DNA of 20,000 bases from IMG/VR virus record IMGVR_UViG_3300033141_001794; one strand, given 5' to 3'. Under the pieces are notes generated by a model, which was not told where the DNA came from, did not search any database, and saw only the letters and a program-made list of their open reading frames with translations. Shown piece after piece: positions 6,125-19,212 of the stretch (the stretch's first letter is position 1; the number at the start of each line of letters is the position of its first letter). The position numbers were made by a program, and so were the translations under genes. The DNA is from an uncultured virus (IMG/VR IMGVR_UViG_3300033141_001794). Lineage: Duplodnaviria; Heunggongvirae; Uroviricota; Caudoviricetes.

Positions 6125-6126
6125 GC

Positions 6127-6381
6127 GTGAAGAAACCAAAGATTAACTATCAGTTTTTGACTTTAATGTTAAGCATTGTAGGATCCCTGGTATATGGCAC
6201 TATGCGTTTTGCAAAGCTGGAAGAGAGGGAGTTGCAGCACTACGAAAGCCAGTGTGAAAAGAATATAGTTTATATCGAAAGTATTCAAAACCTGACGTGT
6301 GCTGTAAAATGCCTTACTACTACTACAGACAGTCTCAGGTATGAAATTAAGTTTATCAATTTTAGGAATGGATTGGAATAA
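6127..6381 (+). CDS. Small protein with an N-terminal transmembrane helix
   Basis: GGAGG RBS and GTG start; hydrophobic FLTLMLSIVGSLVYG; tightly packed behind the large gene. Confidence 0.7.
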   Translation: MKKPKINYQFLTLMLSIVGSLVYGTMRFAKLEERELQHYESQCEKNIVYIESIQNLTCAVKCLTTTTDSLRYEIKFINFRNGLE

Positions 6382-6623
6382 TGTCAGATGAAATACTCGA
6401 TTTAAAAGACCAGACACCAGAAGCGCAGGCGATAGAGCCTTATACTACTAAATTAATGGATTTATTAGATCAGCGAAAGGTAATGTGGGATAAGCAGCCA
6501 GATTCAGAAGAAAAGAAGAAGTGGTTAATATCCAGGCGAGATCCCATTCTCGATATTGCTGAAACTATAGGCACTTATATATATAACGAATTTCCGGAGA
6601 TCATAGATGGTTTACGTAAATAA
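6381..6623 (+). CDS. Hypothetical protein
   Basis: TAATG stop/start coupling within the operon. Confidence 0.65.
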   Translation: MSDEILDLKDQTPEAQAIEPYTTKLMDLLDQRKVMWDKQPDSEEKKKWLISRRDPILDIAETIGTYIYNEFPEIIDGLRK

Positions 6624-6957
6624 AAATTTTAGCAGGGGCAAGATAAAAAAGATAACTCCGGAAAAGGGTGATCAATTTTACCGGTGTAACTTCTCCCAAT
6701 TGAAAGTAACAGAGATATTTAAGGGAATTAAGAATCTTGATTTCGAGGCCTGTAATCTTATGAATTGTATTCTTCCTGCTGGTACGAAGCCTCCAAAAGA
6801 CTGTTTAATTGTTCGAAAGAGCATGTGCAGTCACATTCATCCTGATGTAAGGCCTCTCTGTCCCGTAAATTGCCAACATGTAATTGATACTTATACTATT
6901 AAAATCGACAATAAGCAGGCTAACAAATCCTATAAATATGAAGACAAGGTGATATAA
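6607..6957 (+). CDS. Cys-rich hypothetical protein with short pentapeptide-like repeats
   Basis: FYRCNFSQ / FEACNLMNC repeats and a CSHIH..CPVNCQH cluster; GGAG RBS; coupled to the next gene. Confidence 0.7.
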   Translation: MVYVNKNFSRGKIKKITPEKGDQFYRCNFSQLKVTEIFKGIKNLDFEACNLMNCILPAGTKPPKDCLIVRKSMCSHIHPDVRPLCPVNCQHVIDTYTIKIDNKQANKSYKYEDKVI

Positions 6958-7964
6958 TGCCCGACAGATATTACAAATCAACCGGAAGTAACACGGCCCC
7001 CTATGATACGTGGGTCAAGGCTGCAACGGCTGCACAGACAATAATTGATCTTGCAGTAGCAGGTGACACAAACCATTATTCGGGTACAATTAATGCAATA
7101 TTAGATGTTGATACGAACTCTGGTGCAATAGGGAGTTGGATAAAACACATAGGACATAATAATGATGCGGCCCCTGTTTTAGATGGTACAAGAGTGTTGG
7201 TTGATGGCGCTGGTGTACGTGCTAATTGTATTGGCGCCTGTGATAAAAATTATCATTGGTGGGAAAATTTTGAGTTTACAAGGGCTACAGGTGATGGTGT
7301 TAATTTAGTTGACGCTCCAGATCCTCAAAACTGGGTATTTAAGAATTGTATTTCTCACACAAACGGTGCTGATGGTTGGGGTGGCGATGGGGGTGCGGGT
7401 ACTATTTATTATATACGATGTAAAGCATATAACAACACAGCAAGAGGTTGGGACAGGGCAACCAAAAACGCCAGAGTAATATTGTGTGCTTGTTATGGTA
7501 ATGGTACGGCAGGGCTTTATGAGGGTAATGGTGGGACACTTGTGCTGAACAGTTTATTTTACGACAACGGAGATGTTGCACAGAATTGTTATATTAATGT
7601 TAATGCTGAAGTGATAAACAATGTGTTTGATGGTACTAACCAAGCAAATTCAACGGGACTGCTAACAAAGCAGGATGGTGGGGTTGTGATGTTTAACAGG
7701 TTTACAAACTGCACCATAGGATTAGATGCTGACTTGGAATTTAAAATAGTGGGGTATAACTATTTCCATGACAACACCGCAGATACGGCAAATGCAGTAA
7801 ACTTAGAATTGTTGTTAAATGATCTTGGATTGGATACTAATGAGTATGATGTTGATGTTGACGATGGGTATAATAATGCCGCTACAGCAGATTATAACTT
7901 AAAAGATTCACGCACTTATAATGGTAATGGTGATGATACTGTTGACCTTGGGGTTGGAGTATAA
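6957..7964 (+). CDS. Right-handed parallel beta-helix (pectate-lyase-like) protein, putative tail spike or virion carbohydrate-binding protein
   Basis: Repeating N/C/G-rich units (NCISHTNGADGW, RCKAYNNTARGW, LCACYGNGTAGL, NSLFYDNG) and a C-terminal DYNLK. Confidence 0.7.
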   Translation: MPDRYYKSTGSNTAPYDTWVKAATAAQTIIDLAVAGDTNHYSGTINAILDVDTNSGAIGSWIKHIGHNNDAAPVLDGTRVLVDGAGVRANCIGACDKNYHWWENFEFTRATGDGVNLVDAPDPQNWVFKNCISHTNGADGWGGDGGAGTIYYIRCKAYNNTARGWDRATKNARVILCACYGNGTAGLYEGNGGTLVLNSLFYDNGDVAQNCYINVNAEVINNVFDGTNQANSTGLLTKQDGGVVMFNRFTNCTIGLDADLEFKIVGYNYFHDNTADTANAVNLELLLNDLGLDTNEYDVDVDDGYNNAATADYNLKDSRTYNGNGDDTVDLGVGV

Positions 7965-8212
7965 TGGCACAGACAGGTTCAGTAAAACGAGTTATTACAT
8001 CGGGAATACCTACAATACTTGAAACGGGTAGTGTAAAGTTTCAGATTTGCGCGGGTATTCCAAGTGCGTGGACAGCCGCAGGACCAGGCCCCGAGCCTCC
8101 AACTCCTCCCAGCGAAACCCTGAGAGTAGTCAAAAGCTCTATATCTACTTCCATAGGCCTCTCTCTTTCTGCTTTTATAATGATGATGATAATCTTAATG
8201 GTGATGGTGTAA
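7964..8212 (+). CDS. Small protein with an internal repeat, Pro-rich linker and hydrophobic C-terminus
   Basis: TGSVK..I..GIP occurs twice; PGPEPPTPP linker; AFIMMMIILMVMV tail; GGAG RBS and TAATG coupling. Confidence 0.6.
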   Translation: MAQTGSVKRVITSGIPTILETGSVKFQICAGIPSAWTAAGPGPEPPTPPSETLRVVKSSISTSIGLSLSAFIMMMIILMVMV

Positions 8213-8213
8213 T

Positions 8214-9845
8214 ATGGCAGCAGATTTAATATGTATTGGCGGTGACAGTATTAGGATGGGTTATGATAATAGGGTGGAGGCTTTAATGCCTGCAACTACT
8301 TTTTTTTATAACCCTGCTAATGATCAAGACATGCTGACGTTGTATGGTCATTTAGACACTTATTTGGCTTATATGCCAACCATTTTTCATCTTAACGCTA
8401 CATATCACGATGCGGTAGGAGGAACTACTGATGGGCAGTATGAAGCTCGATTGAGAGATGTCCTTGATAAGTTACTGTCTGTTTATAGGTTGACAATTGT
8501 TTGGGCGCTTGGAACACCTGTTGATAATCCGGTTGACGATGCAAGGGTTGTTGAATTAAACACAATAGCTACAAATGTTATAAATTCATACGGAAACGAC
8601 AGGATATCTATAAACGATTTGTATCAATTTTCGGTTGATAACGGGTTGGTGCGTCATGATGGCGTCCATTTTATAGCAGCCGATTATCAGCAAATTGCTA
8701 TTGAAGTTCAAGGGGTTTTGACCCCATTATTAAGGAGTGGAAGTATGCCTTTACGATATGGTAATTCAAGGTTTTATAGAACCATCCAGGTTAAACCTGC
8801 TAATGTGTATGTTAATGATACGAATGTGCCAGTGTGTCTTTCTGAAGCTGATACTGTCAATGTGCCTGCTGGAGCATATAGAAATGATGGGGGCGATATT
8901 GTTGTAACTGATGCAAACGGTGATCTTATACCAAGAGAAATTGCAACCTTCAATCAAGGTGCTGCTACTATGCAATTATGGTATCGTGATCCTGTGCAAA
9001 ACGTAGCCACAGGTGGCACAGAACTATATCTTCAGTGGGGCGGCTCTGACGTAAATGAAGCTAATAATCCAGTTACTTGGTTTAATAATTTTGGTGGTGC
9101 TGCTCATTGCCAACCGAGCATTCACTGTGAAGAAACTGCTGCAAATTTAACAGACAGTAGCGAGGTTTATACTGCTGCCGATGCTAATATGGTGTATAAC
9201 CAAGCAGGGCAAATAGATGGTGCAGCAGGTTTTAACGGAACAAATTCCTTAAACTCTTGGGGAGATGTTACTGCTTTAAATGGAGTGGTACGATTTACAC
9301 ATCAATACTGGATAAGAATAGTCGATATAACGGCAGCGGATATTACAGCACGAAAACGGGCAAATAACACCAGAAGATACCTTGTTTATAATACAGGTGG
9401 TTCAATGCGTGTGTATGTATGTAATGGTGCCGCCTCTTATGGGCATTTTGCTTTGGCTGGAAAGATTGCTAATAATACATGGGCGCTTGTTACCATAGTA
9501 TATGATGGTTCACTCGCAGGGGATGCAAACAGGTTGAAAATATATGTAGGCACTACTCAAATGGTGCTTGCTTTTGTCAATGCCATACCCGCAACTGCCG
9601 GGAACATGGCTGCCATTGCCTTTGAAATGGGAGACAATGGAGGCATAAGCTCACTTGATGGACGGATAGATGAGAACAGAATTATAGCCGGCGCACTATC
9701 ATTAAATCAAATAAGAGGCCAATATGACAACCAGAACGAGTTCGGTGCAAACGGGACTGTTAATGTCGGTGAAATAGTGTCGTTTCAGACAAACAGAATA
9801 ATCCAATCTCACATGGGACTGACTCAAAACGCAATGTCTTTGTAA
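8214..9845 (+). CDS. SGNH/GDSL hydrolase + DUF2341-like + LamG/concanavalin-A-like domain protein (putative tail or receptor-binding protein)
   Basis: GDS nucleophile motif (IGGDSI), block III HLNAT.HD and block V DGVH; a middle DIVVTDANG..IPREI..LWYR segment; LamG-like WALVTIVYDG..LKIYV..GRIDE. Confidence 0.75.
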   Translation: MAADLICIGGDSIRMGYDNRVEALMPATTFFYNPANDQDMLTLYGHLDTYLAYMPTIFHLNATYHDAVGGTTDGQYEARLRDVLDKLLSVYRLTIVWALGTPVDNPVDDARVVELNTIATNVINSYGNDRISINDLYQFSVDNGLVRHDGVHFIAADYQQIAIEVQGVLTPLLRSGSMPLRYGNSRFYRTIQVKPANVYVNDTNVPVCLSEADTVNVPAGAYRNDGGDIVVTDANGDLIPREIATFNQGAATMQLWYRDPVQNVATGGTELYLQWGGSDVNEANNPVTWFNNFGGAAHCQPSIHCEETAANLTDSSEVYTAADANMVYNQAGQIDGAAGFNGTNSLNSWGDVTALNGVVRFTHQYWIRIVDITAADITARKRANNTRRYLVYNTGGSMRVYVCNGAASYGHFALAGKIANNTWALVTIVYDGSLAGDANRLKIYVGTTQMVLAFVNAIPATAGNMAAIAFEMGDNGGISSLDGRIDENRIIAGALSLNQIRGQYDNQNEFGANGTVNVGEIVSFQTNRIIQSHMGLTQNAMSL

Positions 9846-9872
9846 ATATATATATTACCTCTTATATAGCTT

Positions 9873-9905
9873 AAAGCTCTTCAGAAACGGAGAGCTTTTT
9901 TATTT
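9873..9905 (+). terminator. Rho-independent terminator ending the structural module
   Basis: AAAGCTCT(TC)-loop-(GG)AGAGCTTT hairpin followed by a T-tract. Confidence 0.8.
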
Positions 9906-9915
9906 GAGATTTAGC

Positions 9916-9944
9916 TTGACTTTCCATTAACATTGTAGTAACTT
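9916..9944 (+). promoter_or_regulatory. Sigma70-like promoter for the early operon
   Basis: TTGACT-17 bp-TAACTT immediately after the terminator. Confidence 0.55.
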
Positions 9945-9988
9945 ATAAGAGAAAGGAATAACTAAACCATTTATCAAAGGATAAACTC

Positions 9989-10156
9989 ATGTTGAAGATT
10001 CCCGAAGACCAAAAGGCAACAAAGCCAATATTGGTTACAAAGATCCAGCATAAGCAGATCTGGAAGCTCGCAAAGAAGAGAAATCAGAAGATTACAGAAC
10101 TTATAGATAGCTGGCTGGGCTACGATGAATTGAAGGAAGAGCTTAATGCGTCTTAA
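9989..10156 (+). CDS. 55-aa putative ribbon-helix-helix (Arc/CopG-like) regulator, absent from the ORF track
   Basis: AAAGGA RBS; MLKIPEDQKATKPILVTKIQHKQIWKLAKKRNQKITELIDSWLGYDELKEELNAS fits a beta-strand/helix/helix pattern; first gene after the promoter. Confidence 0.6.
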   Translation: MLKIPEDQKATKPILVTKIQHKQIWKLAKKRNQKITELIDSWLGYDELKEELNAS

Positions 10157-10229
10157 CCCATCAGAGAACAGAAAGCGTGTCCAGCGCTTATTGAGAGATA
10201 TAAAAAAGGTTCGATCTGATGAAAAACAT

Positions 10230-10337
10230 GAGCCGGAAGGTAGCGCAGCGGAGCGCAAGGGCTTTCCCTGGTTTGGGAGTATCTTGCTCGTTCAAATCGA
10301 GGCAAGAGGGCCTGTCCGTAGCTTTCCGGCTCTTTTT
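10230..10337 (+). ncRNA. Candidate structured RNA with tRNA-like D-arm and T-loop elements
   Basis: Closing helix GAGCCGGAAG/TTTCCGGCTC followed by a T-run; inner GCGC-AGCGGA-GCGC, TCCC-N6-GGGA and TCTTGCTCG-TTCAAAT-CGAGGCAAGA. Confidence 0.4.
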
Positions 10338-10361
10338 AATTAACCCTATCAAGGAGTTGTT

Positions 10362-10550
10362 ATGGAAACAGTAAGATTAATAGTTTGTTCAAATGTTAGC
10401 GGAGAAGAAGAGACAATGACATTTACAGACGATTTTGAAGTAAGTTCTGAAGATTATTGCTCGTCCGGTCAAACAGTAGATATTGACAAAAAAATTGAAA
10501 TGGATGTTCCTTCAGGCTTTCCAATGAATCATACTTTTGTAAGGAATTAA
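10362..10550 (+). CDS. Hypothetical acidic protein
   Basis: AAGGAG RBS, ATG start. Confidence 0.6.
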   Translation: METVRLIVCSNVSGEEETMTFTDDFEVSSEDYCSSGQTVDIDKKIEMDVPSGFPMNHTFVRN

Positions 10551-10631
10551 TTGAAACGCAGCGCAGACCTCTTAGCAATAGCGATAGTATTGGGATTGAT
10601 AGCACTTACCCTCATTATCATTTATTTATAA
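10551..10631 (+). CDS. 26-aa single-pass membrane peptide, absent from the ORF track
   Basis: AAGGA RBS and TTG start; MKRSADLLAIAIVLGLIALTLIIIYL fills the gap exactly. Confidence 0.5.
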   Translation: MKRSADLLAIAIVLGLIALTLIIIYL

Positions 10632-10641
10632 AGGAGATCAC

Positions 10642-10872
10642 ATGGCAGACTCGTTAGGCATTACACTCAAGAAGGAACTGTTAATCGACATGGCCAAAGC
10701 TCGCAGCGGGGAGATATTGCCCTGCACAGCTCGGAAGACTTTAGACAATTGTTTCACAACCAGTCCAGAAGGCGTTTTATTTCTTTGGTATGTTGAAGCG
10801 GAATCCAAAACCACTCGCCTTATAAGCGAGAATACTGATATTAACGAGTATTTAACAAAGGAGGCACAATGA
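10642..10872 (+). CDS. Hypothetical protein
   Basis: AAGGAG RBS; overlaps the erf start. Confidence 0.7.
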   Translation: MADSLGITLKKELLIDMAKARSGEILPCTARKTLDNCFTTSPEGVLFLWYVEAESKTTRLISENTDINEYLTKEAQ

Positions 10873-11612
10873 TGAAAAAAGACCTGGTTCCTCAGAACGA
10901 GCAGGCACCAGTAACCGCAGTTAATTCACCAGCTGACATAATGCAGTTAGCTATGAACAAGGACCTTGATCTGGACCGCATTGAGAAGATGCTTGAACTC
11001 CAGACCAAGTATGAAGAGCGTGAGGCAAAGAAGGCCTATACACAGGCCATGGCTAACTTTAAAGCCAATCCTCCGGAAATATCCAAGGATAAGAATGTCC
11101 AATATCAAACTTCAAAGGGACAGACAAATTATAGCCATGCTACCCTTGGGAATGTAACCCAGAAGATTAACCAAGCTCTTGCCGGTCACGATCTTTCTGC
11201 AGGGTGGAAAACAGAGCAGGATAAGGATAATATCACAATTACCTGTACAATAACTCATGCTCTTGGACATAGCGAAAGCACTTCCCTGTCGGCTGGTGCT
11301 GACACTTCTGGAGGGAAAAACAGTATCCAGGCCGTAGGGTCCACAATCACATATCTGGAAAGATATACTCTTCTTGCCCTCACCGGTCTTGCTACCCATG
11401 ATCAGGACGATGATGGCCGGGGAAGTGAAGGTGAAGGCCTTGTTTATATCACAGACAATCAGAAGTCTACTATTGTGGATATGATTGCAGACACTTCGGC
11501 CAATGAAGCAAGGTTCTTAAAATATCTCGGTGCAGAATCGATTGATACTATTCCGGCCACATTTTATAACAGGGCTATTAAGGCATTGGAAGTTAAAAAG
11601 GAGCAGGCATGA
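10869..11612 (+). CDS. erf: Erf-family single-strand annealing protein
   Basis: Erf signature CTITHALGHSES...KNSIQAVGSTITYLERYTLLALTGLA...DDDG; AAGGAGG RBS. Confidence 0.9.
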   Translation: MMKKDLVPQNEQAPVTAVNSPADIMQLAMNKDLDLDRIEKMLELQTKYEEREAKKAYTQAMANFKANPPEISKDKNVQYQTSKGQTNYSHATLGNVTQKINQALAGHDLSAGWKTEQDKDNITITCTITHALGHSESTSLSAGADTSGGKNSIQAVGSTITYLERYTLLALTGLATHDQDDDGRGSEGEGLVYITDNQKSTIVDMIADTSANEARFLKYLGAESIDTIPATFYNRAIKALEVKKEQA

Positions 11613-12214
11613 TAATCGTAGAAGGAATTAAGCAAAACAGTCTGGAATGGTACGCTCTTAAGCTCGGCATTCCCAGTGCTTCCAGCTTTGACAAGATAAT
11701 TACAACCAAGGGAGTTGTATCAAAGACGCGAGCGAAGTATCTGTATAAACTGGCTGGCGAGGTTGTAACTGGTGAGCGTGAGGAGGGATATAACAATTCC
11801 AATATGGATCGAGGCCATGAGCGCGAAGAAGAGTCCAGAAATGCCTATGAGCTCATTAAAGATGTTGAGGTGGAACAGGTAGGCTTTGTCTATTTTGATG
11901 AAAAGAAAGACATTGGCTGTTCTCCTGATGGCCTTGTGGGTGAAGATGGAGGATTCGAGACAAAGGACGCTCTTCCTCATGTTCATCTTGATCGATTAGA
12001 GAATGGCTGGTCAGAGTCACAGCATTTTCAGCAGGTCCAGGGAAGTCTTTATGTTACTGGCCGGAAGTGGTGGGACCTTGTAAGTTATTCCAGAGGGTTC
12101 AAGCCTTTAATCATCAGGTTTGAACGTGACGAGGAGTTTATTAAGAAGTTAGCTGTTGAACTCCGCTTATTCAATAACAACTTAAAAGATGTCGTTAAAA
12201 AGTATTCTGTATAG
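11609..12214 (+). CDS. YqaJ/lambda-exonuclease-family nuclease
   Basis: QNSLEW..LKLGIPSAS, MDRGHERE, CSPDGLV, FETK and QVQG motifs; ATGA-coupled to erf. Confidence 0.9.
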   Translation: MIIVEGIKQNSLEWYALKLGIPSASSFDKIITTKGVVSKTRAKYLYKLAGEVVTGEREEGYNNSNMDRGHEREEESRNAYELIKDVEVEQVGFVYFDEKKDIGCSPDGLVGEDGGFETKDALPHVHLDRLENGWSESQHFQQVQGSLYVTGRKWWDLVSYSRGFKPLIIRFERDEEFIKKLAVELRLFNNNLKDVVKKYSV

Positions 12215-12222
12215 GAGATATT

Positions 12223-13053
12223 ATGGAAACCACTGAACTCATGACTATTAACCAGGAGAACGCTCTTGAAGTATTTACCGGAGACAAGCTGCCGGAATAT
12301 TTAAAAGCTATTAAGGAAGATGCTTTAAACTTTGTTGCAGATCCTGATACTGCTACTGGGAGAAAGCAGATAGCATCAAAAGCCCACTCTATTGCAAAAG
12401 AGAAGGTCCGTATAGATAATATTGGCAAGGTCCTGGTGGCTGACTGGAAAGCAAAGAGTTATATGGTTGATGAAGCCAGGAAGAAGACCCGGGATTTTAT
12501 GGACGATGTTAAAAAGGAGGTTCGCCTGCCATTGACCGAGTATGAGGATGCTAAGAAAGCGGTAGAAGAAGCAGAGCGCCAAGCTATCAAGAAGGAGATG
12601 GAATGGGAAGAGGCCCTGGTTGAAGATGATTTCTTTAACCGGAAAAAGGAGGTTGAGCGCAAAGAGGCTGAGTTGAAAGCCCAGGAAGAAGAGCGTCTTG
12701 CTAAAGAGAAGGCTCTCCAGGCAGAGATTGATCAGAAGAACCGTGAAGAGAGGATAAAACTGGAAGCCAAAGAGAAAGCGGAACGCGAAGCAGCTGATAA
12801 GATTGAGGCACTAAAGCAGGTCCAGCGTGACAAGGTAGCAAAGGAACTCGCTGAGAAAGAGCGCATTGAGGAAGAGAAGCGGGAGGCCCAGAGACTTGCT
12901 GATCGGAAAGCTGCTAACCTGAATCACCAGCGGAAGATCAACCGGGAAGCGCTCGAGGGCTTTGTTGACCATGGCCTTACAGAAGAGCTTGCTAAAAACA
13001 TCATTACCCTGATAGCCAAGGGTGAAATCAAACACATTTCTATTAAGTATTAA
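12223..13053 (+). CDS. Coiled-coil phage protein, E/K/A-rich
   Basis: AGGAG RBS; long charged helical region. Confidence 0.75.
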   Translation: METTELMTINQENALEVFTGDKLPEYLKAIKEDALNFVADPDTATGRKQIASKAHSIAKEKVRIDNIGKVLVADWKAKSYMVDEARKKTRDFMDDVKKEVRLPLTEYEDAKKAVEEAERQAIKKEMEWEEALVEDDFFNRKKEVERKEAELKAQEEERLAKEKALQAEIDQKNREERIKLEAKEKAEREAADKIEALKQVQRDKVAKELAEKERIEEEKREAQRLADRKAANLNHQRKINREALEGFVDHGLTEELAKNIITLIAKGEIKHISIKY

Positions 13054-13056
13054 AGG

Positions 13057-13281
13057 ATGGGTGATATGGGAGACATGGCAGATTTGATGTTAGATGGTAC
13101 AATGTGTTCGGTATGCGGAGTGTATCTGGGTAGTGACGCTGACTACCCTCAAATGTGTGCAGATTGCGAAAAAGAAGAGAAGGAGGCTCGCGCAGAGGAC
13201 CAACACGATGAAACCAGGAAGCCTGCTAACCTGACATGGAACAGAGAAACCGGAAAGTATGAGTCTGCAAATGCCAAATAG
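13057..13281 (+). CDS. Small zinc-finger-like protein
   Basis: CSVC...CADC. Confidence 0.65.
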   Translation: MGDMGDMADLMLDGTMCSVCGVYLGSDADYPQMCADCEKEEKEARAEDQHDETRKPANLTWNRETGKYESANAK

Positions 13282-13525
13282 AACCCTGTATCCCTGCACC
13301 TGTAACGGCTTTGAGAATAATCCTTATTGCGTCTTCCATTATTCAAAGGAAACCAGAATAAGAATATCACCAGTGATTCAGGGATTAAAAGATCAATATC
13401 AATTTAATCACCAGGAAGCTTATGAGAGAGGTGTTGAATTAATTTGTAACGAATTGAAACAGGAAGAAAAAGAACGTAAGCTATTGATAGAAAGAAAGTA
13501 CTATAATTCACTTAAAGTTGCTTAA
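13259..13525 (+). CDS. Hypothetical protein
   Basis: CTC..CVFH motif; overlaps the previous gene; start uncertain. Confidence 0.55.
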   Translation: MSLQMPNRTLYPCTCNGFENNPYCVFHYSKETRIRISPVIQGLKDQYQFNHQEAYERGVELICNELKQEEKERKLLIERKYYNSLKVA

Positions 13526-13603
13526 AAAGAATGTGAGTGCGTATAGCGACTTGTTGTATGACATTATGAGAATCTTTAAATTGTAAAAAGGAGGTTTTGC
13601 TAT

Positions 13604-13912
13604 ATGGAATACCAAATAGTAGTTGAAAGTGACCCGTTTAGAATGGCAGAGTGCGTAAATGATATGTGTAAAGATGGGTGGATGCCGGTAGGTTCGCACC
13701 ACGTTGCTTTTGAGCCTGGTCAAATATGGTATTACTCACAAGCGGTAGTCCGCAAAACTCCTAACACTAAGGAAGCTTTACAAAACGACACACAACAACT
13801 ACAGGCTAAAATTGCCGATTGTGCATTGGTGATTGAAAATAGTGAAAAGGGGCTTGGAAGTATCACGAAAGGTGCAATTGCACACAGGCTTCGGCAACTA
13901 TCAGCCGTGTAG
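13604..13912 (+). CDS. Cassette 1: DUF1737-like protein
   Basis: MEYQIV...VNDMCKDGWMPVG...YSQAVV pattern; AAGGAGG RBS; the stop lies in the hairpin right arm. Confidence 0.6.
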   Translation: MEYQIVVESDPFRMAECVNDMCKDGWMPVGSHHVAFEPGQIWYYSQAVVRKTPNTKEALQNDTQQLQAKIADCALVIENSEKGLGSITKGAIAHRLRQLSAV

Positions 13913-13923
13913 GAACGTTGTCG
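13787..13923 (+). repeat. attC-like site S1
   Basis: CAAC-AA-CTACA-GGCT-AAAA-TTGCCGA ... TCGGCAA-CTATC-AGCC-[G]-TGTAG-GAAC-GTTG. Confidence 0.8.
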
Positions 13924-13987
13924 ATCAATCCCGCTGGGGTTGGGCAGCACGATTTTAATTGTAGTTTAACGAATTGGAGGCTAAATT

Positions 13988-14284
13988 ATGGGAGTATCGG
14001 GTAAAAGTGTAAAGAAGTTTTCAGAAGGAAATTTAGCTATTACAAATGGCGTTCATTTAGACAGCGACTATAAACATGTTTTTTTTGACATAACTGAATG
14101 TGATGATAAGAAGGTTAAGCTAAAAAGTCACTGGAATAGTACTGAGTTTAATTGTGTAATAGAAACTGATACTTTTGGCGAACATACAACAATTAAACAG
14201 ACTTCTGAGGTAGAAAAATTTCTTTTTCATATAAAGTCAAAAAAATTTAAGGTAAGACCGATGAAAGGTGACAGGATTGGATAA
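13988..14284 (+). CDS. Cassette 2: hypothetical protein
   Basis: GGAGG RBS, ATG start. Confidence 0.65.
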   Translation: MGVSGKSVKKFSEGNLAITNGVHLDSDYKHVFFDITECDDKKVKLKSHWNSTEFNCVIETDTFGEHTTIKQTSEVEKFLFHIKSKKFKVRPMKGDRIG

Positions 14285-14428
14285 CAATTCGTTAAAGGAA
14301 AAAGCAAATTGAACGTCACAATGGAAAAAATAACCAGCGGGCACGCGGATGTTAAACACCGCTTTAATCGACAACGCCCTCTTACAAACCGATTGAGAGC
14401 TTGTCTAATGTCCACTCCAGCCGGACAG

Positions 14429-14503
14429 CCGACAACAATCTTAGGGGAAAATATCAGGACGAAAAGAAGCCCTGACACGTTCCCCCGTAAGAGGGCGTTG
14501 CAG
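14429..14503 (+). repeat. attC-like site S2
   Basis: CAAC-AA-TCTTA-GGGGAA-AATA-TCAGG ... CCTGA-CACG-TTCCCC-[CG]-TAAGA-GGGC-GTTG. Confidence 0.75.
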
Positions 14504-14564
14504 GAAATTAAACCGCTAAGAGCATAATTGTAGTTTGGCTCATTAGCAGAAAAGGATTGTAAAA

Positions 14565-14873
14565 ATGGAAATTGATTACGGAAATGGAAAAACTAAATAT
14601 GGGCCTGGTGTGCAAATAGAATTAAGCGGCGGCGAGGTGGCAATTGCAATAGACACATATTTAACAGCACACAATGTATATATATCCGGCCCCAGAACTA
14701 TTACAGTAAACAATGAGCTGTGTAAAATTGGGAGTGTCTATGTTGATCCATCTGGGTTTGCAATTGCTAATGGTATAAAATATAGTGGTAGAGGTTCAAG
14801 CCTTCGCCAAAAGAGAATTAAGGAAAACGCGGTTGAACATCCTGCAACACCGAAAGGCCAAAATGACAAGTAA
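14565..14873 (+). CDS. Cassette 3: hypothetical protein
   Basis: AAAGGA RBS; the stop lies in the S3 loop. Confidence 0.7.
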   Translation: MEIDYGNGKTKYGPGVQIELSGGEVAIAIDTYLTAHNVYISGPRTITVNNELCKIGSVYVDPSGFAIANGIKYSGRGSSLRQKRIKENAVEHPATPKGQNDK

Positions 14874-14899
14874 CTTCGGCCATTCCGGGAACGTTGTCG
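14840..14899 (+). repeat. attC-like site S3 (shortest)
   Basis: CAAC-A-CCGAAA-GGCC ... GGCC-[A]-TTCCGG-GAAC-GTTG. Confidence 0.75.
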
Positions 14900-14944
14900 G
14901 AAATACCGAATCGATTGTAAATTGGGTGATAAACGGAGGTTAAA

Positions 14945-15220
14945 ATGCAATTTTTAGACAAGTTGGGGTGGCCTGTTGAAAGAGTAAAGGGCAGGCCGGT
15001 GTTAAATTTTTTGCGGTTGTTAATTCACACCCGTAAAATTAAGCGGGGCAAGTTTGTTTACAAGCAGGAACCATCACCCAATGTAACTTGTGGAAATTCG
15101 GAACATACCGACAACAAGACACAGCCTAAAACTTCGGCTTTTGGTGATGCGGTTCGTAAACATGCCGAAAAAGAAGGAATTGATTTGGATGTTAAGCCTA
15201 AACAAATTTACGGTGGGTAG
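14945..15220 (+). CDS. Cassette 4: hypothetical basic protein
   Basis: GGAGGT RBS; the stop lies in the S4 loop. Confidence 0.65.
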   Translation: MQFLDKLGWPVERVKGRPVLNFLRLLIHTRKIKRGKFVYKQEPSPNVTCGNSEHTDNKTQPKTSAFGDAVRKHAEKEGIDLDVKPKQIYGG

Positions 15221-15252
15221 CCTTCGCATCAGGCGTGTGCAAGACGTTGGAG
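15108..15252 (+). repeat. attC-like site S4
   Basis: CAAC-AAGA-CACA-GCCT ... AGGC-[G]-TGTG-CAAGAC-GTTG. Confidence 0.7.
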
Positions 15253-15282
15253 TAAATTTTTTCTTTTGAGATTGGAGTTTTT

Positions 15283-15519
15283 ATGCGTGATAATGATATT
15301 GAAAGGTTAGACTATCACCTTAGTCGTAAAGAGTTTAAATCGCTCCGTTTTGTGTGGGATCGCATAAAAAAGGCTTTAAGCGGAAGCGAAAAAACTCCCA
15401 CCAACAACGACAGCCCAAAATTGCATTGTCCTAAGTGTGGCGCAACCGACAATATAGCACAATCGACAGAGGGGCATAAGTATCATTGTTTTAGGTGTGA
15501 TAATTACTGGAAAAAATAA
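15283..15519 (+). CDS. Cassette 5: protein with a C-terminal zinc ribbon
   Basis: GGAG RBS; CPKCG...CFRC. Confidence 0.7.
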   Translation: MRDNDIERLDYHLSRKEFKSLRFVWDRIKKALSGSEKTPTNNDSPKLHCPKCGATDNIAQSTEGHKYHCFRCDNYWKK

Positions 15520-15550
15520 TGCAACTGTCGGGCGTGTCTTGACGTTGTGA
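15399..15550 (+). repeat. attC-like site S5
   Basis: CAAC-AAC-GACA-GCCC-AAAA-TTGCATT ... AATGCAA-CTGTC-GGGC-[G]-TGTC-TTGAC-GTTG. Confidence 0.8.
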
Positions 15551-15583
15551 CGAAATTAATCCTTTAGAATATTGGAGTTGCGA

Positions 15584-15835
15584 ATGAAATTAAAAGAAGC
15601 TATGAAAACAATCGGGAGTTTGGTATCTGGTTGCGGTTATTCAAAGGATGTTGATGCGTATAATGTCATTCGCAAAGCATTAGAGGAAGCGGATGAACTG
15701 TCGCACAACACCGCCAGGGATGCCATCGCTTTCGTTGAACAGGTAAAAGGGTGTAGTAAGCGGGTGGCCGGTTCGAACAAAGTATTAGTTGCATTAATCA
15801 ATCAGGCTGCGGTCATAGCGCAACGGCACCCATAG
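15584..15835 (+). CDS. Cassette 6: hypothetical protein
   Basis: The GGAG RBS favours ATG 15584 over TTG 15572; the stop lies in the S6 right arm. Confidence 0.65.
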   Translation: MKLKEAMKTIGSLVSGCGYSKDVDAYNVIRKALEEADELSHNTARDAIAFVEQVKGCSKRVAGSNKVLVALINQAAVIAQRHP

Positions 15836-15850
15836 CGTAATCCGTTGTTT
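15703..15850 (+). repeat. attC-like site S6
   Basis: CAAC-AC-CGCCA-GGG-[A]-TGCC ... GGCA-CCC-[A]-TAGCG-TAATCC-GTTG. Confidence 0.75.
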
Positions 15851-15894
15851 TCAATTAACCGCCGATTATAGGTCGGCAGAAAGAAAGGTAACAG

Positions 15895-16437
15895 ATGGAT
15901 GATAAACAAACGTTAGTGGAGTCCGGCAAGCAGTTGACGGCAACTTTGCCAAATGATACGATGCGTATTATGAGCATTGCTATTGAAACCTTAGCCGTGG
16001 CAAGGGATAATTTAAAGAAACGTCTTGGCAACTGTAATGTTTCACAAATGGTTGCAGAAAGTGACGATAGATATTCTGCGATATTAACAGAACCTAATGG
16101 TAAAAAACATTTCTGGAAAAAGGACGGTTCTTATGATGGTAACGATAAGGAGTGCTCTGACGACATTTATAAGGAAGCGGTTAACACTGCGGAATTGAAA
16201 AACCAGATTATAGGGGTTATTAACCAGGCCGACAATCTAACAATTAAACAGATGCACGCAAATGTTGACAATATTTTCAATTCCTTGCCCTCACGGGAAA
16301 AACAACAAACGCAGCCTGCAATTAAGTTACTACAGGAGTTTTTGGAAGTTTACCAGTCGTGCGGAATATCAAGTGAATTAGCAAACTTTGCTGACAAGGT
16401 ACATAGTTTCGTAACTGAACAGCAGGCGGGTGCGTAA
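15895..16437 (+). CDS. Cassette 7: hypothetical protein
   Basis: AAAGGT RBS; the stop lies in the S7 right arm. Confidence 0.7.
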   Translation: MDDKQTLVESGKQLTATLPNDTMRIMSIAIETLAVARDNLKKRLGNCNVSQMVAESDDRYSAILTEPNGKKHFWKKDGSYDGNDKECSDDIYKEAVNTAELKNQIIGVINQADNLTIKQMHANVDNIFNSLPSREKQQTQPAIKLLQEFLEVYQSCGISSELANFADKVHSFVTEQQAGA

Positions 16438-16447
16438 TCCGTTGTCC
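16299..16447 (+). repeat. attC-like site S7
   Basis: CAAC-AA-ACGCA-GCCTGC..AGTTAC ... GTAACT..GCAGGC-[GGG]-TGCGT-AATCC-GTTG. Confidence 0.75.
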
Positions 16448-16474
16448 AAAATATTTAAAATTGGAGTGTTGTAA

Positions 16475-16726
16475 ATGGAAAATTTAACAAGGTATTGTTT
16501 ATTAAAAGGGGCGTTTGATGGATGTTCTTGCAAAATCGTTGAGGTAGACGATGGTGATTATACCAAATTTTCCGACATTAAGGATATTTTAAACAAATCG
16601 GACAACAAAGCTATGGACGCAATTATCGACAAAGTAGACGAATATATCAATAGCCATTGGGAGAGCGAAATGGTTGTTGAACGGCTTCGTTCTTTTGCTG
16701 CCTGGTGTCGACAACAGCGCCAGTAG
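16475..16726 (+). CDS. Cassette 8: hypothetical protein
   Basis: GGAG RBS; the stop lies in the S8 right arm. Confidence 0.7.
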   Translation: MENLTRYCLLKGAFDGCSCKIVEVDDGDYTKFSDIKDILNKSDNKAMDAIIDKVDEYINSHWESEMVVERLRSFAAWCRQQRQ

Positions 16727-16739
16727 CTAAACGTTGTAT
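16600..16739 (+). repeat. attC-like site S8
   Basis: CAAC-AA-AGCTA-TGG-[A]-CGC..TCGACA ... TGTCGA..GCG-CCA-[G]-TAGCT-AAAC-GTTG. Confidence 0.8.
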
Positions 16740-16770
16740 GCAATAAATTTTTTCAAAAAGGAGTTGTATA

Positions 16771-17091
16771 ATGGCCGAAAAATTATTACCATGTCCGTTT
16801 TGCGGGAAAAATCCAAAGGTTTTAGCAAGAGGTTCAATCATGTGTAGTAATGACAGTTGTTCGGCAGGCCCAATGGCTATGATGTCAATGTTTGCTTCTA
16901 AAAAGGCGTGTGTAAAAGGCTGGAATCATCGGCCACAAATTAAGGAAGAAAAAATTGACAACACACAACACACAAAGGCTACAATTGCTTTGGAGGACGT
17001 GGGTAAAATTTTAAAAAGTTATCCACGTGAAATTAACCCAAATTTTGCCGCAAACCTTATTGTTGAAATGGAAAAAAAGGCGCAACAATAG
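16771..17091 (+). CDS. Cassette 9: Lar-like (restriction alleviation family) zinc-binding protein
   Basis: LLPCPFCG...CSNDSC...KKACVKGWNHRP matches the Lar-family pattern; AAGGAG RBS. Confidence 0.7.
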   Translation: MAEKLLPCPFCGKNPKVLARGSIMCSNDSCSAGPMAMMSMFASKKACVKGWNHRPQIKEEKIDNTQHTKATIALEDVGKILKSYPREINPNFAANLIVEMEKKAQQ

Positions 17092-17111
17092 CCCTTTGCT
17101 GTACGTTGCAC
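16962..17111 (+). repeat. attC-like site S9
   Basis: CAAC-ACA-CAAA-GGCTA-CAA-TTGC ... GCAA-CAA-TAGCC-[C]-TTTG-CTGTAC-GTTG. Confidence 0.75.
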
Positions 17112-17150
17112 AAAATTAAACCGCTAAGAGCAGAATTGTAGTTTGGCAAA

Positions 17151-17375
17151 ATGATGAAACAACTTAAATATTACAAATATGAGGGCTTAAACTGCCACCA
17201 TTGCAGGCGGTCACATTATGATGGTCACGGAAATGGAACGTGTCCAATTGAATTTAAAAAGGGCGCACATGAAAAGAAATTTGTAAACCCTGGCGAAACA
17301 AATCTTATATGCAGATACTTTGAAAAGATTTTGCCAAAAGAAAGTGCGGAAAACATTGAAAACAGTATATTATGA
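17151..17375 (+). CDS. Cys-containing hypothetical protein (possible last cassette, no intact downstream site)
   Basis: CHHC...CP...ICRYF; shares its leader with cassette 3. Confidence 0.6.
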   Translation: MMKQLKYYKYEGLNCHHCRRSHYDGHGNGTCPIEFKKGAHEKKFVNPGETNLICRYFEKILPKESAENIENSIL

Positions 17376-17408
17376 CTTAGAAAGAACGTGTAAAGAAAGG
17401 GGCTTAAG

Positions 17409-17954
17409 GTGAATGAGAAATTTGTAGACATACCAGGATGGAAAGGGCTTTATCAGATTTCTAATTTAGGTAGAGTTAAAAGTTTAGCAAGACCTCTTTT
17501 TAATGGGGCGGGATATTTTAAATCAAAGGAACAAATATTAAAAACAAGCAAAAATATTAATGGTTATCTATCTTTACGTTTGTGCGGGAGCGGGGAACGC
17601 TACAAGGTAGATGTTAGTAGGTTAATGAAATTGGCATTTTTTAACAATTCAAAGCTGGAAATAGACCACATAAACGGAGACAAAACAGATAATCGGTTAG
17701 ACAATCTTAGGCTTTGTACTCATTCACAAAATCATTTTAATATCAAAAAGGCGGGAAGGTGTTCTTCTCGGTTTAAGGGTGTTTATTTTATAAAAAAAAC
17801 CAATAGGTGGTGTGCAAGAATAACGGTGAAAGGTAAAACTTATAGACTCGGCAATTTTTGTACAGAAGAAGACGCAGCAAAAGCCTATGATGTTGAAGCC
17901 AAAAAGCGTTGTGGAGGATTTGCTGTACTAAATTTAAGCTCCGAAAAATCGTGA
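17409..17954 (+). CDS. NUMOD4-HNH-AP2 homing endonuclease
   Basis: DIPGWKGLYQISNLGRVKSL (NUMOD4); IDHINGDKTDNRLDNL (HNH); SRFKGVY..WCARI..LGNF.TEEDAAKAYD (AP2). Confidence 0.9.
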   Translation: MNEKFVDIPGWKGLYQISNLGRVKSLARPLFNGAGYFKSKEQILKTSKNINGYLSLRLCGSGERYKVDVSRLMKLAFFNNSKLEIDHINGDKTDNRLDNLRLCTHSQNHFNIKKAGRCSSRFKGVYFIKKTNRWCARITVKGKTYRLGNFCTEEDAAKAYDVEAKKRCGGFAVLNLSSEKS

Positions 17955-17997
17955 AGGAATACTACCAGAAGAAGGACCAGGATAAATGCAAGGAGAA

Positions 17998-18090
17998 ATG
18001 ATTCTATACTGGCTTGGGGCTATCGGTGGCATAGGAGCTGCAATAGCATTTGGATATATTATTTTTAAACTTATTACGAGGAGGGATTGA
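17998..18090 (+). CDS. 30-aa single-pass membrane peptide (holin-like?), absent from the ORF track
   Basis: AAGGAG RBS; MILYWLGAIGGIGAAIAFGYIIFKLITRRD; the stop overlaps the peptidase start. Confidence 0.55.
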   Translation: MILYWLGAIGGIGAAIAFGYIIFKLITRRD

Positions 18091-18398
18091 TGACTACCTT
18101 ATTCAGAATGAATGTTATCTGGGACGTATGTGACGAGATCGAGGAGGCTCGCAGGCTTTTAGAGAAGTACCTGGCTTCAAAGGGTAAAGAGTTAGTTGTA
18201 ACCTCTGCAAACGATAGCCAGCACTCAGATGGATCCCTTCATCCTTCAGGAAAGGCTTTTGATATCCGGAAGGTCGCGGGAAAATTAACCCGTAAAATAA
18301 TATACAACCTCATTAAACACCTTGGATTTCAGTATAAAGATGTTATTCCTACGTCTTGGGGATTTCATATTGAATATCAACCGAAAAAAAAGAAATAA
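18090..18398 (+). CDS. Peptidase M15 / DD-peptidase-fold protein (putative endolysin)
   Basis: VVTSAND..H...SLHPSGKAFDIR...FHIEY matches SxHxxGxAxD...HxE; GGAGG RBS. Confidence 0.75.
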   Translation: MTTLFRMNVIWDVCDEIEEARRLLEKYLASKGKELVVTSANDSQHSDGSLHPSGKAFDIRKVAGKLTRKIIYNLIKHLGFQYKDVIPTSWGFHIEYQPKKKK

Positions 18399-18399
18399 C

Positions 18400-18428
18400 T
18401 TGCAAACCAGTAACCATTATGCTATATT
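18400..18428 (+). promoter_or_regulatory. Sigma70-like promoter of the replication operon
   Basis: TTGCAA-17 bp-TATATT with an extended -10 TG. Confidence 0.6.
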
Positions 18429-18441
18429 GATATTATCATGT

Positions 18442-18541
18442 TAACCGGCAAGAAATCATGCAAATCATTTACCCAGTAAAAGCCTTCCTCCAAAGGATAG
18501 CCCCGCTGTTGTTTACTTGCCGGTTACAACACGGACTGGGT
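18442..18541 (+). ncRNA. Structured leader RNA, architecture reminiscent of C4/CI antisense RNAs
   Basis: ACCCAGT/ACTGGGT closing helix; inner CCG-TGTTGT/ACAACA-CGG hairpin whose loop CTTGCCGGTTA complements upstream TAACCGGCAAG. Confidence 0.5.
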
Positions 18542-18561
18542 ACCTTATATTGTGAGCAGCT

Positions 18562-19212
18562 ATGGCCCTAAGAGATCAACCCTATATTCCTCTTTATGTA
18601 CAGGACTTTTTAACAGACGAAAAGCTTAACGAGTGTAGTGCAGAAGCAGTTGGAGTATATATAAAAATTATGTGTGTTATGCACAAATCTAAAGAGTATG
18701 GTGTTATTTTGTTAAAGCAAAAAGACAAGCAAAAGGATAAGCAAATAACTAATTTTGCTTTAAAGCTTGATAGTCATATGTCTTTTAAGGTTGCTGTTAT
18801 TGAAAGCGCTCTTGGTGAATTAATAGAGGAAGAGGTTTTAAGGGTAGATGGTGATAGGTTAATACAAAAAAGGATGGTAAGCGACAATGATATAAGCACT
18901 AAGCGTTCTTTGGCTGGTAAAAAGGGAGGGAAAAAAACACAATTTGCTAAAGCAAACTATGAAGCAAACTCTGAAAATGAATATGTAATTGAAAGTGCAA
19001 ATAAAAAAGATATAAAAAAAGCTCTTATAGAAAAACTTAAAAAAGAACTTCAAAACTTAAGCACAATAAATCCTGAAGTAATAGGAGGAGAGTTAAGTGA
19101 TAATTTAAACCTTCCTTTTTATGGATGGGAAAGCTTTTTAGCAAATACTCCTGTAGATGATTTAGAACTTGCTCTTAACTTTTTAGTCAGTTATGATACG
19201 GAGAAGGTATGA
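18562..19212 (+). CDS. Putative replication initiator / replisome organiser with a YdaU/DUF1376-like N-terminus
   Basis: PYIPLYVQDFLTD..CSAEAVGVYIKIMC.MH; LIQKRMV; RSLAGKKGG. Confidence 0.7.
   Translation: MALRDQPYIPLYVQDFLTDEKLNECSAEAVGVYIKIMCVMHKSKEYGVILLKQKDKQKDKQITNFALKLDSHMSFKVAVIESALGELIEEEVLRVDGDRLIQKRMVSDNDISTKRSLAGKKGGKKTQFAKANYEANSENEYVIESANKKDIKKALIEKLKKELQNLSTINPEVIGGELSDNLNLPFYGWESFLANTPVDDLELALNFLVSYDTEKV

Follow-up and report, generated by a model that had tools for sequence, protein, structure and literature searches.

A candidate integron-like array of nine one-gene cassettes in a phage genome fragment and its likely XerA-like recombinase

Integrons are regarded as bacterial devices. 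The 20,000-nt stretch of an uncultured virus of the Caudoviricetes analysed here (IMG/VR record IMGVR_UViG_3300033141_001794; this whole stretch is called the window in the following) is a phage fragment with every gene on the + strand, and it contains a row of nine small genes, each of which ends in an imperfect inverted repeat bounded by CAAC and GTTG. The locus raises the question of whether these repeats are recombination sites at which genes are exchanged, and which enzyme would act on them. A preliminary description made from the sequence had pointed to the non-canonical geometry of the repeats and to the lack of an integrase in view, and had suggested a distinct recombinase system with a divergent integrase acting in trans.

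The + strand of the window contains the word CGTTG at 15 places. Nine of them (at 13916, 14496, 14892, 15245, 15543, 15843, 16440, 16732 and 17104) each stand behind the stop codon of one of a series of consecutive small + strand open reading frames (ORFs), and all nine have an upstream CAAC and form an imperfect inverted repeat with CAAC...GTTG ends. In our reading, which we consider probable, nine mobile cassettes of one gene each make up an integron-like array in this phage at 13553-17108, its enzyme is likely XerA-like, and the array is an orphan in this window. Each cassette would begin with the TTG of a right-end GTTG, end with the G of the following right-end GTTG, and contain a leader, a single small ORF and a hairpin site. 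The elements of the array, named S0 to S9 for the sites, are listed below with the analysis on which each assignment is based.

13540..13558, + strand: S0, start of the array, a simple attI-like site (CGTATA-7 nt-GTTG) without a hairpin; window and contig L002 diverge right after its GTTGTA (13553-13558).
13604..13912, + strand: cassette 1 ORF, 102 amino acids, with a DUF1737-like N-terminal domain (residues 3-50) and a C-terminal tail encoded within S1; the tail is homologous to S1-type tails.
13793..13920, + strand: S1, hairpin site of 128 nt, of a widespread type (the S1 type); arm alignment, anchored scan and compensatory changes relative to L021.
13988..14284, + strand: cassette 2 ORF, 98 amino acids, no family (family search).
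14372..14500, + strand: S2; with the outer left arm (14372) the stem is a perfect one of 14 bp, with the inner left arm (14433) it has the typical bulged geometry (scans, folding).
14496..14539, + strand: copy 1 of a repeated cassette leader, beginning at the CGTTG of S2; 93% identical over 44 nt to 17104-17147.
14565..14873, + strand: cassette 3 ORF, 102 amino acids (ORF list).
14845..14896, + strand: S3, short site of 52 nt with a weak hairpin, score 15 (anchored scan, folding).
14945..15220, + strand: cassette 4 ORF, 91 amino acids (ORF list).
15112..15249, + strand: S4, the weakest hairpin, score 12 (anchored scan, folding).
15283..15519, + strand: cassette 5 ORF, 78 amino acids, with a zinc-ribbon-like tail (family search).
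15402..15547, + strand: S5 (arm alignment, anchored scan).
15572..15835, + strand: cassette 6 ORF, 87 amino acids (ORF list).
15706..15847, + strand: S6, at whose right end the variant contig L003 of record G001 departs from the window (contig comparison, scan).
15895..16437, + strand: cassette 7 ORF, 180 amino acids (ORF list).
16303..16444, + strand: S7 (arm alignment, anchored scan).
16475..16726, + strand: cassette 8 ORF, 83 amino acids (ORF list).
16603..16736, + strand: S8, at whose right end the variant contig L002 joins the window sequence again (contig comparison, scan).
16771..17091, + strand: cassette 9 ORF, 106 amino acids, with a Lar-like restriction-alleviation N-terminal domain (residues 3-54) and a tail encoded within S9 (family search).
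16966..17108, + strand: S9, last site of the array (arm alignment, anchored scan).
17104..17147, + strand: copy 2 of the cassette leader, beginning at the CGTTG of S9; pair of 14496-14539.

Alignment of the two arms of each site reproduced most of the geometry that had been described. The bulge in the right arm is a G in S1, S4, S5 and S8, an A in S3 and S6, GGG in S7 and C in S9, and the left arm of S6 and of S8 has a second bulged base, an A; the reading of the S2 bulge as CG depends on whether the left arm at 14433 or that at 14372 is chosen. S2 can be drawn as two nested folds on one common right arm, and the flank of its outer stem pairs at 5/5 positions with the flank of S1. The spacers are asymmetric as described: in the six strong window sites they measure 0-2 nt behind CAAC and 2-5 nt ahead of GTTG. 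The core is indeed off the canonical one, GTTRRRY fitting none of the nine right ends in the window. The statement that the extrahelical bases of canonical attC sites lie on the other, ORF-side arm agrees with the portion of PMC3053210 available to us (T12'' and G20''). The geometry that had been pointed out in the window moreover holds for the whole family of sites described below.

We compared the sites with chance in several ways. In an unanchored arm alignment, five of the nine sites ranked within the top 1.2% of 3000 random placements, with S9 at 7.6%. A scan anchored on CAAC...GTTG assigned scores of 15-26 to S1, S2, S3 and S5-S9 and a score of 12 to S4, the best pairs outside the array reaching 16 and 14. 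At a score of at least 19, the window yielded six hits, all within the array, and the same threshold gave 15 hits in 605,004 bases of control loci, 95 hits in 164,013 bases of array loci and two in block-shuffled array loci. The plain word AACGTTG is unenriched (three found, 2.06 expected); the signal is one of structure and position and not of this word itself. Folding of the window's long sites as a whole resulted in modest z-scores of the minimum free energy (-2.4 to +0.5), the contribution of the stems being diluted by the coding loops; only the outer fold of S2 stood out, at -7.4.

Sites of this kind recur in other viral contigs, at least 12 of which carry them as arrays. A search of the viral collection with a 17-nt pattern taken from the right arm of S1 retrieved 18 stretches, one of which is a near-identical contig, and the remaining 17 comprise 13 true S1-type sites on 12 contigs and four chance hits. 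For family statistics we used the 95 sites from 13 loci that score at least 19 in the anchored scanner. These are 46-207 nt long (median 128), and up to 18 of them occur in one 10-kb locus. The left spacer measures 1 nt in 61/95 sites and the right spacer 4-5 nt in 78/95, figures that are partly conditioned by the scanner (see below); the first base after CAAC is an A in 83/95 and a C precedes GTTG in 88/95. The first bulge lies in the right arm in 71/95 sites and in the left arm in eight, with no bulge in 16; where it is in the right arm, it is a G in 52/71 and stands behind six paired positions in 46. Overall, the right arms contain 134 extra bases and the left arms 35. At the right end the core reads GTTG-N5-AAT, that is, five variable bases followed by AAT (79-88 of the 95 sites), and the classical consensus GTTRRRY is matched by 3/95 sites and RYYYAAC by 5/95, both together by none. 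One context in which such an array was seen is a complete jumbo-phage genome (L045 and L046 of record G003, 213 kb with terminal repeats), where approximately 21 sites are spread over about 11 kb and the array begins just after a uracil-DNA-glycosylase gene. GenBank phage records contained no match to the array, to an S1-type site or to the integrase described below.

Comparison of the window with its closest relatives reveals where the arrays differ. Contig L003 (record G001) is 99.98% identical to positions 5600-15856 of the window and the two part immediately behind the GTTGT of S6, where L003 continues with other DNA. Contig L002 matches the window at 6148-13603 (99.3%) and at 16731-19023 (100%), and between these matches it has 225 nt in place of the 3127 nt of the window, namely one different cassette, bearing its own small site, where the window has eight. 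When followed base by base, the left breakpoint of L002 falls just behind the GTTGTA of S0 and the right one on the ACGTTGT of S8. The window and these two contigs represent three versions of one phage, with nine cassettes, with one plus the ninth, and with six plus another, and all three junctions (3/3) fall on a right-end GTTGT.

In integrons, the stretch that follows an attC site is already part of the next cassette and is complementary to the far end of the site which that cassette carries. This relation is present here too: the 5 nt after the GTTG of one site and the 5 nt before the CAAC of the following site are complementary at 32/45 positions in the window, compared to 12/45 for the own left flank. 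Over 72 consecutive pairs from the 13 loci, the mean complementarity is 3.51 of 5 positions, against 1.80 for the own flank and 1.84 for random pairs, and at least four of the five positions are complementary in 42/72 pairs. Repeated mosaic pieces within and between arrays are of two kinds, either the site (approximately CAAC to GTTG) or a leader that starts at GTTG. The leader of the Lar-like cassette starts at GTTG in three contexts (L056, L066 and L021), and a scan for further copies of the leader repeat recovered only the two near-identical contigs. In the 44-nt leader that is present behind both S2 and S9, a TAnnTTTG-like word (TAGTTTGG) stands just 5' of the next start codon; we take it to resemble the -7 promoter motif of Bacteroidota, which would hint at the host; strong Shine-Dalgarno sequences on the window ORFs are at odds with this hint.

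The stem mismatches disclose which strand of the sites is the folding one. Among 206 mismatches in the 95 sites, A.C outnumbers G.T on the coding strand by 128 to 13 (113 to 13 without the 12 S1-type sites), with an excess of A.C in 74/95 sites and of G.T in three, and these counts, as well as those of the bulge side, are free of the spacer conditioning of the scanner. An A.C on one strand is a G.T on the other, and therefore selection for folding has acted on the non-coding strand. The fold of the - strand is also the more stable one in 73/95 sites (Wilcoxon p = 3e-8). Between S1 and its homologue in L021, two blocks of the stem are altered on both arms in such a way that pairing is kept, which represents compensatory change. 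Folding of the bottom strand is also the rule for classical integrons according to the accessible part of PMC3053210.

The strand bias bears directly on a different reading of the locus, in which the repeats are regulatory RNA hairpins (terminators, RNase III sites or mRNA-stabilising stems) and the genes between them are shuffled by homologous recombination at repeats, similar to the PeSL (promoter and stem-loop) elements. This reading would account for the position of the elements, which stand at the ends of genes in a region of early or accessory type, and for repeated leaders of 44-100 nt that begin at the sites, and PeSL-mediated shuffling is known as such (PMC2839356 and PMC4122927, as far as the excerpts of these reports go). 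The wobble pairs are antisense, however, so that a sense mRNA would be mismatched, and judged from sequence the A.C bias together with the stability of the - strand excludes structure in the sense mRNA. In addition, the stems enclose about 38 translated codons, the sequence varies between sites while the geometry is kept, and the complementarity of flanks across a cassette has no rationale at the RNA level. No Rfam family matched the sites; a scan of the window against Rfam returned nothing relevant and a single chance-level match elsewhere in the window. We hence regard RNA hairpins as a very unlikely explanation.

The folding strand and the junctions leave the enzyme to be considered. That no integrase is in view proved correct for the window, since none of its 24 ORFs matches PF00589 and a tblastn search of the window with the 11 integrases introduced below reached a best E of 0.35. 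Among ten array-bearing records that were searched whole, two encode a PF00589 protein, in both cases directly upstream of the array and on the same strand. The two array-adjoining recombinases (on L065 and L068) are 42% identical to each other, and 7-8 nt separate their stop codon from the first GTTG. In L068, integrase and array are located between a gp2.5-like single-stranded DNA-binding protein and DNA polymerase, outside any lysogeny module. These proteins belong to a tight clade of ten clusters at E <=1e-61, followed by a gap to 1e-34, and in an alignment of 11 clade members the catalytic residues R-K-H-R-H-Y are invariant. The best family model is NF040815 (XerA-type) with 174.8 bits at a cut-off of 220, so the enzyme is no XerA equivalog. 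The IntI model TIGR02249 matches all 11 members (best E 1.7e-37), with 114 bits in two stretches for the first clade member at a cut-off of 265. The nearest solved structure is XerA of P. abyssi (PDB 4A8E, 292 amino acids), with which the enzyme aligns end to end, and by model score and alignment the array-associated enzyme is devoid of the IntI-specific insertion (I2 helix region).

The start of the arrays follows a common layout. A TATA-N7-GTT(G/A) start stands right behind the integrase stop codon in all five clade members of the viral collection (L065-L069). The scanner finds arrays behind L065 and L068; L069 has zero scanner sites at score 19 and two sites with variant ends that are visible by eye, and the contigs of L066 and L067 finish within approximately 160 nt of the integrase stop. 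In the window, S0 with its CGTATA-N7-GTTG exhibits the layout of these post-integrase starts without an integrase gene. Just 5' of S0, a short frame at 13526-13545 ends in C-V-stop on the TATAG of the attI-like motif, and the array-linked integrases end in G-V or G-I and a stop codon on TATAA at an equal distance from GTTG; the frame could be what is left of the 3' end of a lost integrase gene, or just the site.

Other enzyme classes were searched for in the same records. IntI is absent from all ten array-bearing records, and no resolvase was found in the five integrase-less array-bearing records; the jumbo-phage record G003 lacks a tyrosine recombinase, a resolvase-type serine recombinase and a Y1 transposase. 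An HUH enzyme as the general recombinase was rejected, as a Y1 protein is present in only one of the five integrase-less records, G002, about 3.6 kb past the last weak site. This gene (G002 55882-56235, corresponding to L084 4883-5236) encodes an IS200/IS605-type Y1 transposase and is probably an unrelated insertion. Taken together, the distinct recombinase system of the preliminary description has gained arrays of the same sites in other viral contigs and adjoining XerA-like enzymes as support by association. The enzyme that adjoins the arrays in relatives is Xer-like and without the IntI insertion, and it may act in trans on the present phage or be encoded elsewhere on its genome.

These findings also have to be held against the reading of the locus as an ordinary CALIN (cluster of attC sites lacking integron-integrase), with classical attC sites that derive from a bacterial integron and are served by the classical IntI of the host. 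The AAC...GTT ends, the hairpins, the folding of the bottom strand, the single ORF per unit and the cassette-flank logic are all in line with this reading, and Qi et al. 2023 reported CALINs in phages on the basis of standard attC detection and IntI1, which recombined 5/6 of the tested phage attC sites (PMC9892861, in the part accessible to us). What speaks against it is, on the side of the sites, that the two classical core consensuses almost never fit and never occur together, and that the bulges are situated on the arm adjoining the crossover whereas the classical T12'' and G20'' are on the other (PMC3053210, same portion). On the side of the enzyme, IntI is missing from the ten records and the only adjoining recombinase remains far below the cut-off of the IntI model while it aligns end to end with the 292-amino-acid XerA. 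The cassette genes, moreover, are of phage type (Lar, Tad8, DUF1737 and orphan methylases). An ordinary CALIN is thus unlikely in our view.

In the integron-like array that we favour, the non-coding (bottom) strand of a site would fold as single-stranded DNA, and strand exchange by a tyrosine recombinase would take place in the gene-distal GTTG/CAAC box. Cassettes would leave as circles and re-enter at the start site S0 or at other sites. The enzyme is likely a compact XerA-like recombinase without the IntI insertion, of the type that in related phages is encoded directly 5' of such arrays. The window has no such enzyme, and therefore the array would be an orphan, whose recombinase may be supplied in trans or encoded in another part of the genome, unless the array is idle at present.

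The content of the cassettes could be assigned in part. The known domains of the DUF1737-like and Lar-like cassette proteins in the window cover the first ~50 residues only. Among 66 cassette ORFs of relatives, seven have Pfam matches, which include an MT-A70 methylase, Lar, the Thoeris inhibitor Tad8 and a zinc ribbon, with a weak C5 methylase and one weak cytochrome-like match among the weaker ones. By these domain matches the cargo of the arrays is probably of a counter-defence flavour.

The remainder of the cassette proteins is encoded by the sites themselves. In 83/95 sites an ORF is open for at least 40 codons upstream of CAAC, and in 83/95 it stops inside the site, usually in the right arm of the hairpin and at a median of 38 codons past CAAC. 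A profile built from the 13 S1-type tails matched 537 protein clusters, 53 of them at E <=1e-10, and among the 150 matches listed nearly all end at the C-terminus of proteins of 47-162 amino acids; the length of the tail is constant in the 13 S1-type copies. Such data would be expected if the element were a C-terminal domain of many small phage proteins, spread by ordinary domain shuffling and palindromic by coincidence. The CAAC is found in all three reading frames among the window sites, however, and conservation of the tail is limited to the ends that encode the pairing stems, its middle being unconserved. Paired positions change together, and the A.C bias and the right-arm bulges are features of a nucleic acid. 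A single-sequence AlphaFold model of the cassette 1 protein (ORF1) was weak (mean pLDDT, the predicted local distance difference test, of 63) and says little about the tail. As an explanation of the palindromes, a protein domain therefore appears highly improbable.

Several observations weigh against an integron-like array with a XerA-like enzyme. S3, S4 and S6 are indistinguishable from random placements in the unanchored alignment, and their hairpins are weak. The scanner rewards pairing of the arms and allows a free spacer of up to 5-6 nt on the right compared to 3-4 nt on the left, which partly conditions the spacer figures, and sites with TAAC or GTTA ends were left out of the count. The evidence for cassette exchange comes from the comparison of related sequences. 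Besides the window, which is without an integrase, no tyrosine recombinase was found in eight of the ten array-bearing records, three of which (G003, G006 and G007) are at least 90% complete, and the link between enzyme and array is seen in two full and three partial arrays. The tail also shows signs of being constrained like a protein, in its open frame (83/95) and the constant length of the S1 type, for which the recombination model offers no account.

A more comprehensive reading, which we put forward tentatively as a possibility, combines these observations. The phages might possess a gene-capture machine of their own, separate from bacterial integrons, in which a XerA-like enzyme without I2 acts on bottom-strand hairpins whose bulges, as marks of the strand, are on the arm opposite to that in classical attC; the cassettes might form a counter-defence stock (Lar, Tad8 and orphan methylases), orphan arrays might exchange in trans during co-infection, and the sites might also be translated as C-terminal tails. 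If true, cassette logic would have arisen or would persist without the IntI-specific domain, by means of a Xer-type enzyme and mirrored sites. It would provide phages with a modular store of small, probably counter-defence genes and would explain why near-identical phages differ by blocks of accessory genes. The 3.5-kb 'ORFan' region of the window would then be a dynamic cassette array.

The genes around the array were also assigned. The left end of the window cuts a gene for a DarB-like antirestriction polyvalent protein of more than 2037 amino acids (11-6124, +), which has SNF2 helicase, methylase-like and LPD38 regions. Further products are beta-helix and lectin-type proteins. These are accompanied by an Erf annealing protein (10869-11612, +), a YqaJ exonuclease (11609-12214, +) and a phrog_1376 protein (12223-13053, +), after which a run of small ORFs begins. 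The possibility that the array tracks the phylogeny of phrog_1376-like genes was ruled out, since a strong site is present downstream in only one of 28 scanned loci (L021). One ORF past the last cassette site lies a gene for a free-standing NUMOD4-HNH-AP2 homing-type endonuclease (17409-17954, +), and a replisome-organiser-like protein is encoded at 18562-19212 (+). The gap 5' of the latter gene contains a perfect 12-bp inverted repeat (approximately 18441-18452 and 18508-18519) around ~55 nt, which could be an origin or an operator and is not a cassette site.

When compared to known systems, the array is closest in organisation to classical integrons, with which it shares a promoter-proximal start site, co-oriented one-ORF cassettes, imperfect AAC/GTT hairpins, a presumed crossover in the gene-distal GTT box and a post-site flank that is owned by the next cassette. 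Shuffling of small accessory genes bounded by stem-loops, which are gained, lost or swapped among close relatives, is also described for the PeSL motifs of T4-type phages (PMC2839356, PMC4122927). PeSL, as portrayed in these excerpts, is a conserved promoter-plus-terminator motif that presumably operates by homologous recombination, whereas the stems described here are variable in sequence, fold antisense, follow circle-junction logic and are associated with a tyrosine recombinase.

Xer enzymes offer a second comparison. XerA and XerC/D resolve dimers at a single dif-type site, whereas the enzyme described here, which aligns end to end with archaeal XerA (PDB 4A8E and 5HXY), is encoded beside arrays of up to 18 sites. 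XerCD, which has no IntI insertion, integrates the folded single strand of the CTX phage and is thereby a precedent for the proposed reaction. The pdif sites are 28-bp double-stranded dif-like sites of alternating orientation. None was noticed here by eye, a formal search for them not having been made. Like the present cassettes, gene modules of Acinetobacter plasmids are bounded by such Xer-type recombinase sites (PMC7399989, in the part accessible to us). Single-strand recombination has been tied to the IntI-specific domain (PMC7790495, as far as its excerpt goes). Searches of the full-text literature, in which subscription journals are not covered, turned up no account of a phage-borne system of Xer type that has sites of this kind.

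The remaining comparison concerns the definition of the integron itself. With nine sites and no integrase in 20 kb, the locus has the composition of a CALIN cluster, while its sites are set apart from classical attC by the core, GTTG-N5-AAT instead of GTTRRRY, and by the bulges and the longer spacer, which are located on the crossover-side arm and not on the ORF-side arm. The cassette ORF furthermore usually reads through the hairpin, unlike in classical attC. In relation to IntI, the array-linked enzyme is XerA-like and without the IntI insertion, though R-K-H-R-H-Y is kept, and its gene abuts the array on the same strand, whereas intI is transcribed divergently. As far as sequence can tell, the system would thus work like an integron while it differs from attC sites in core consensus and bulge arm and from IntI in the insertion and the orientation of its gene.

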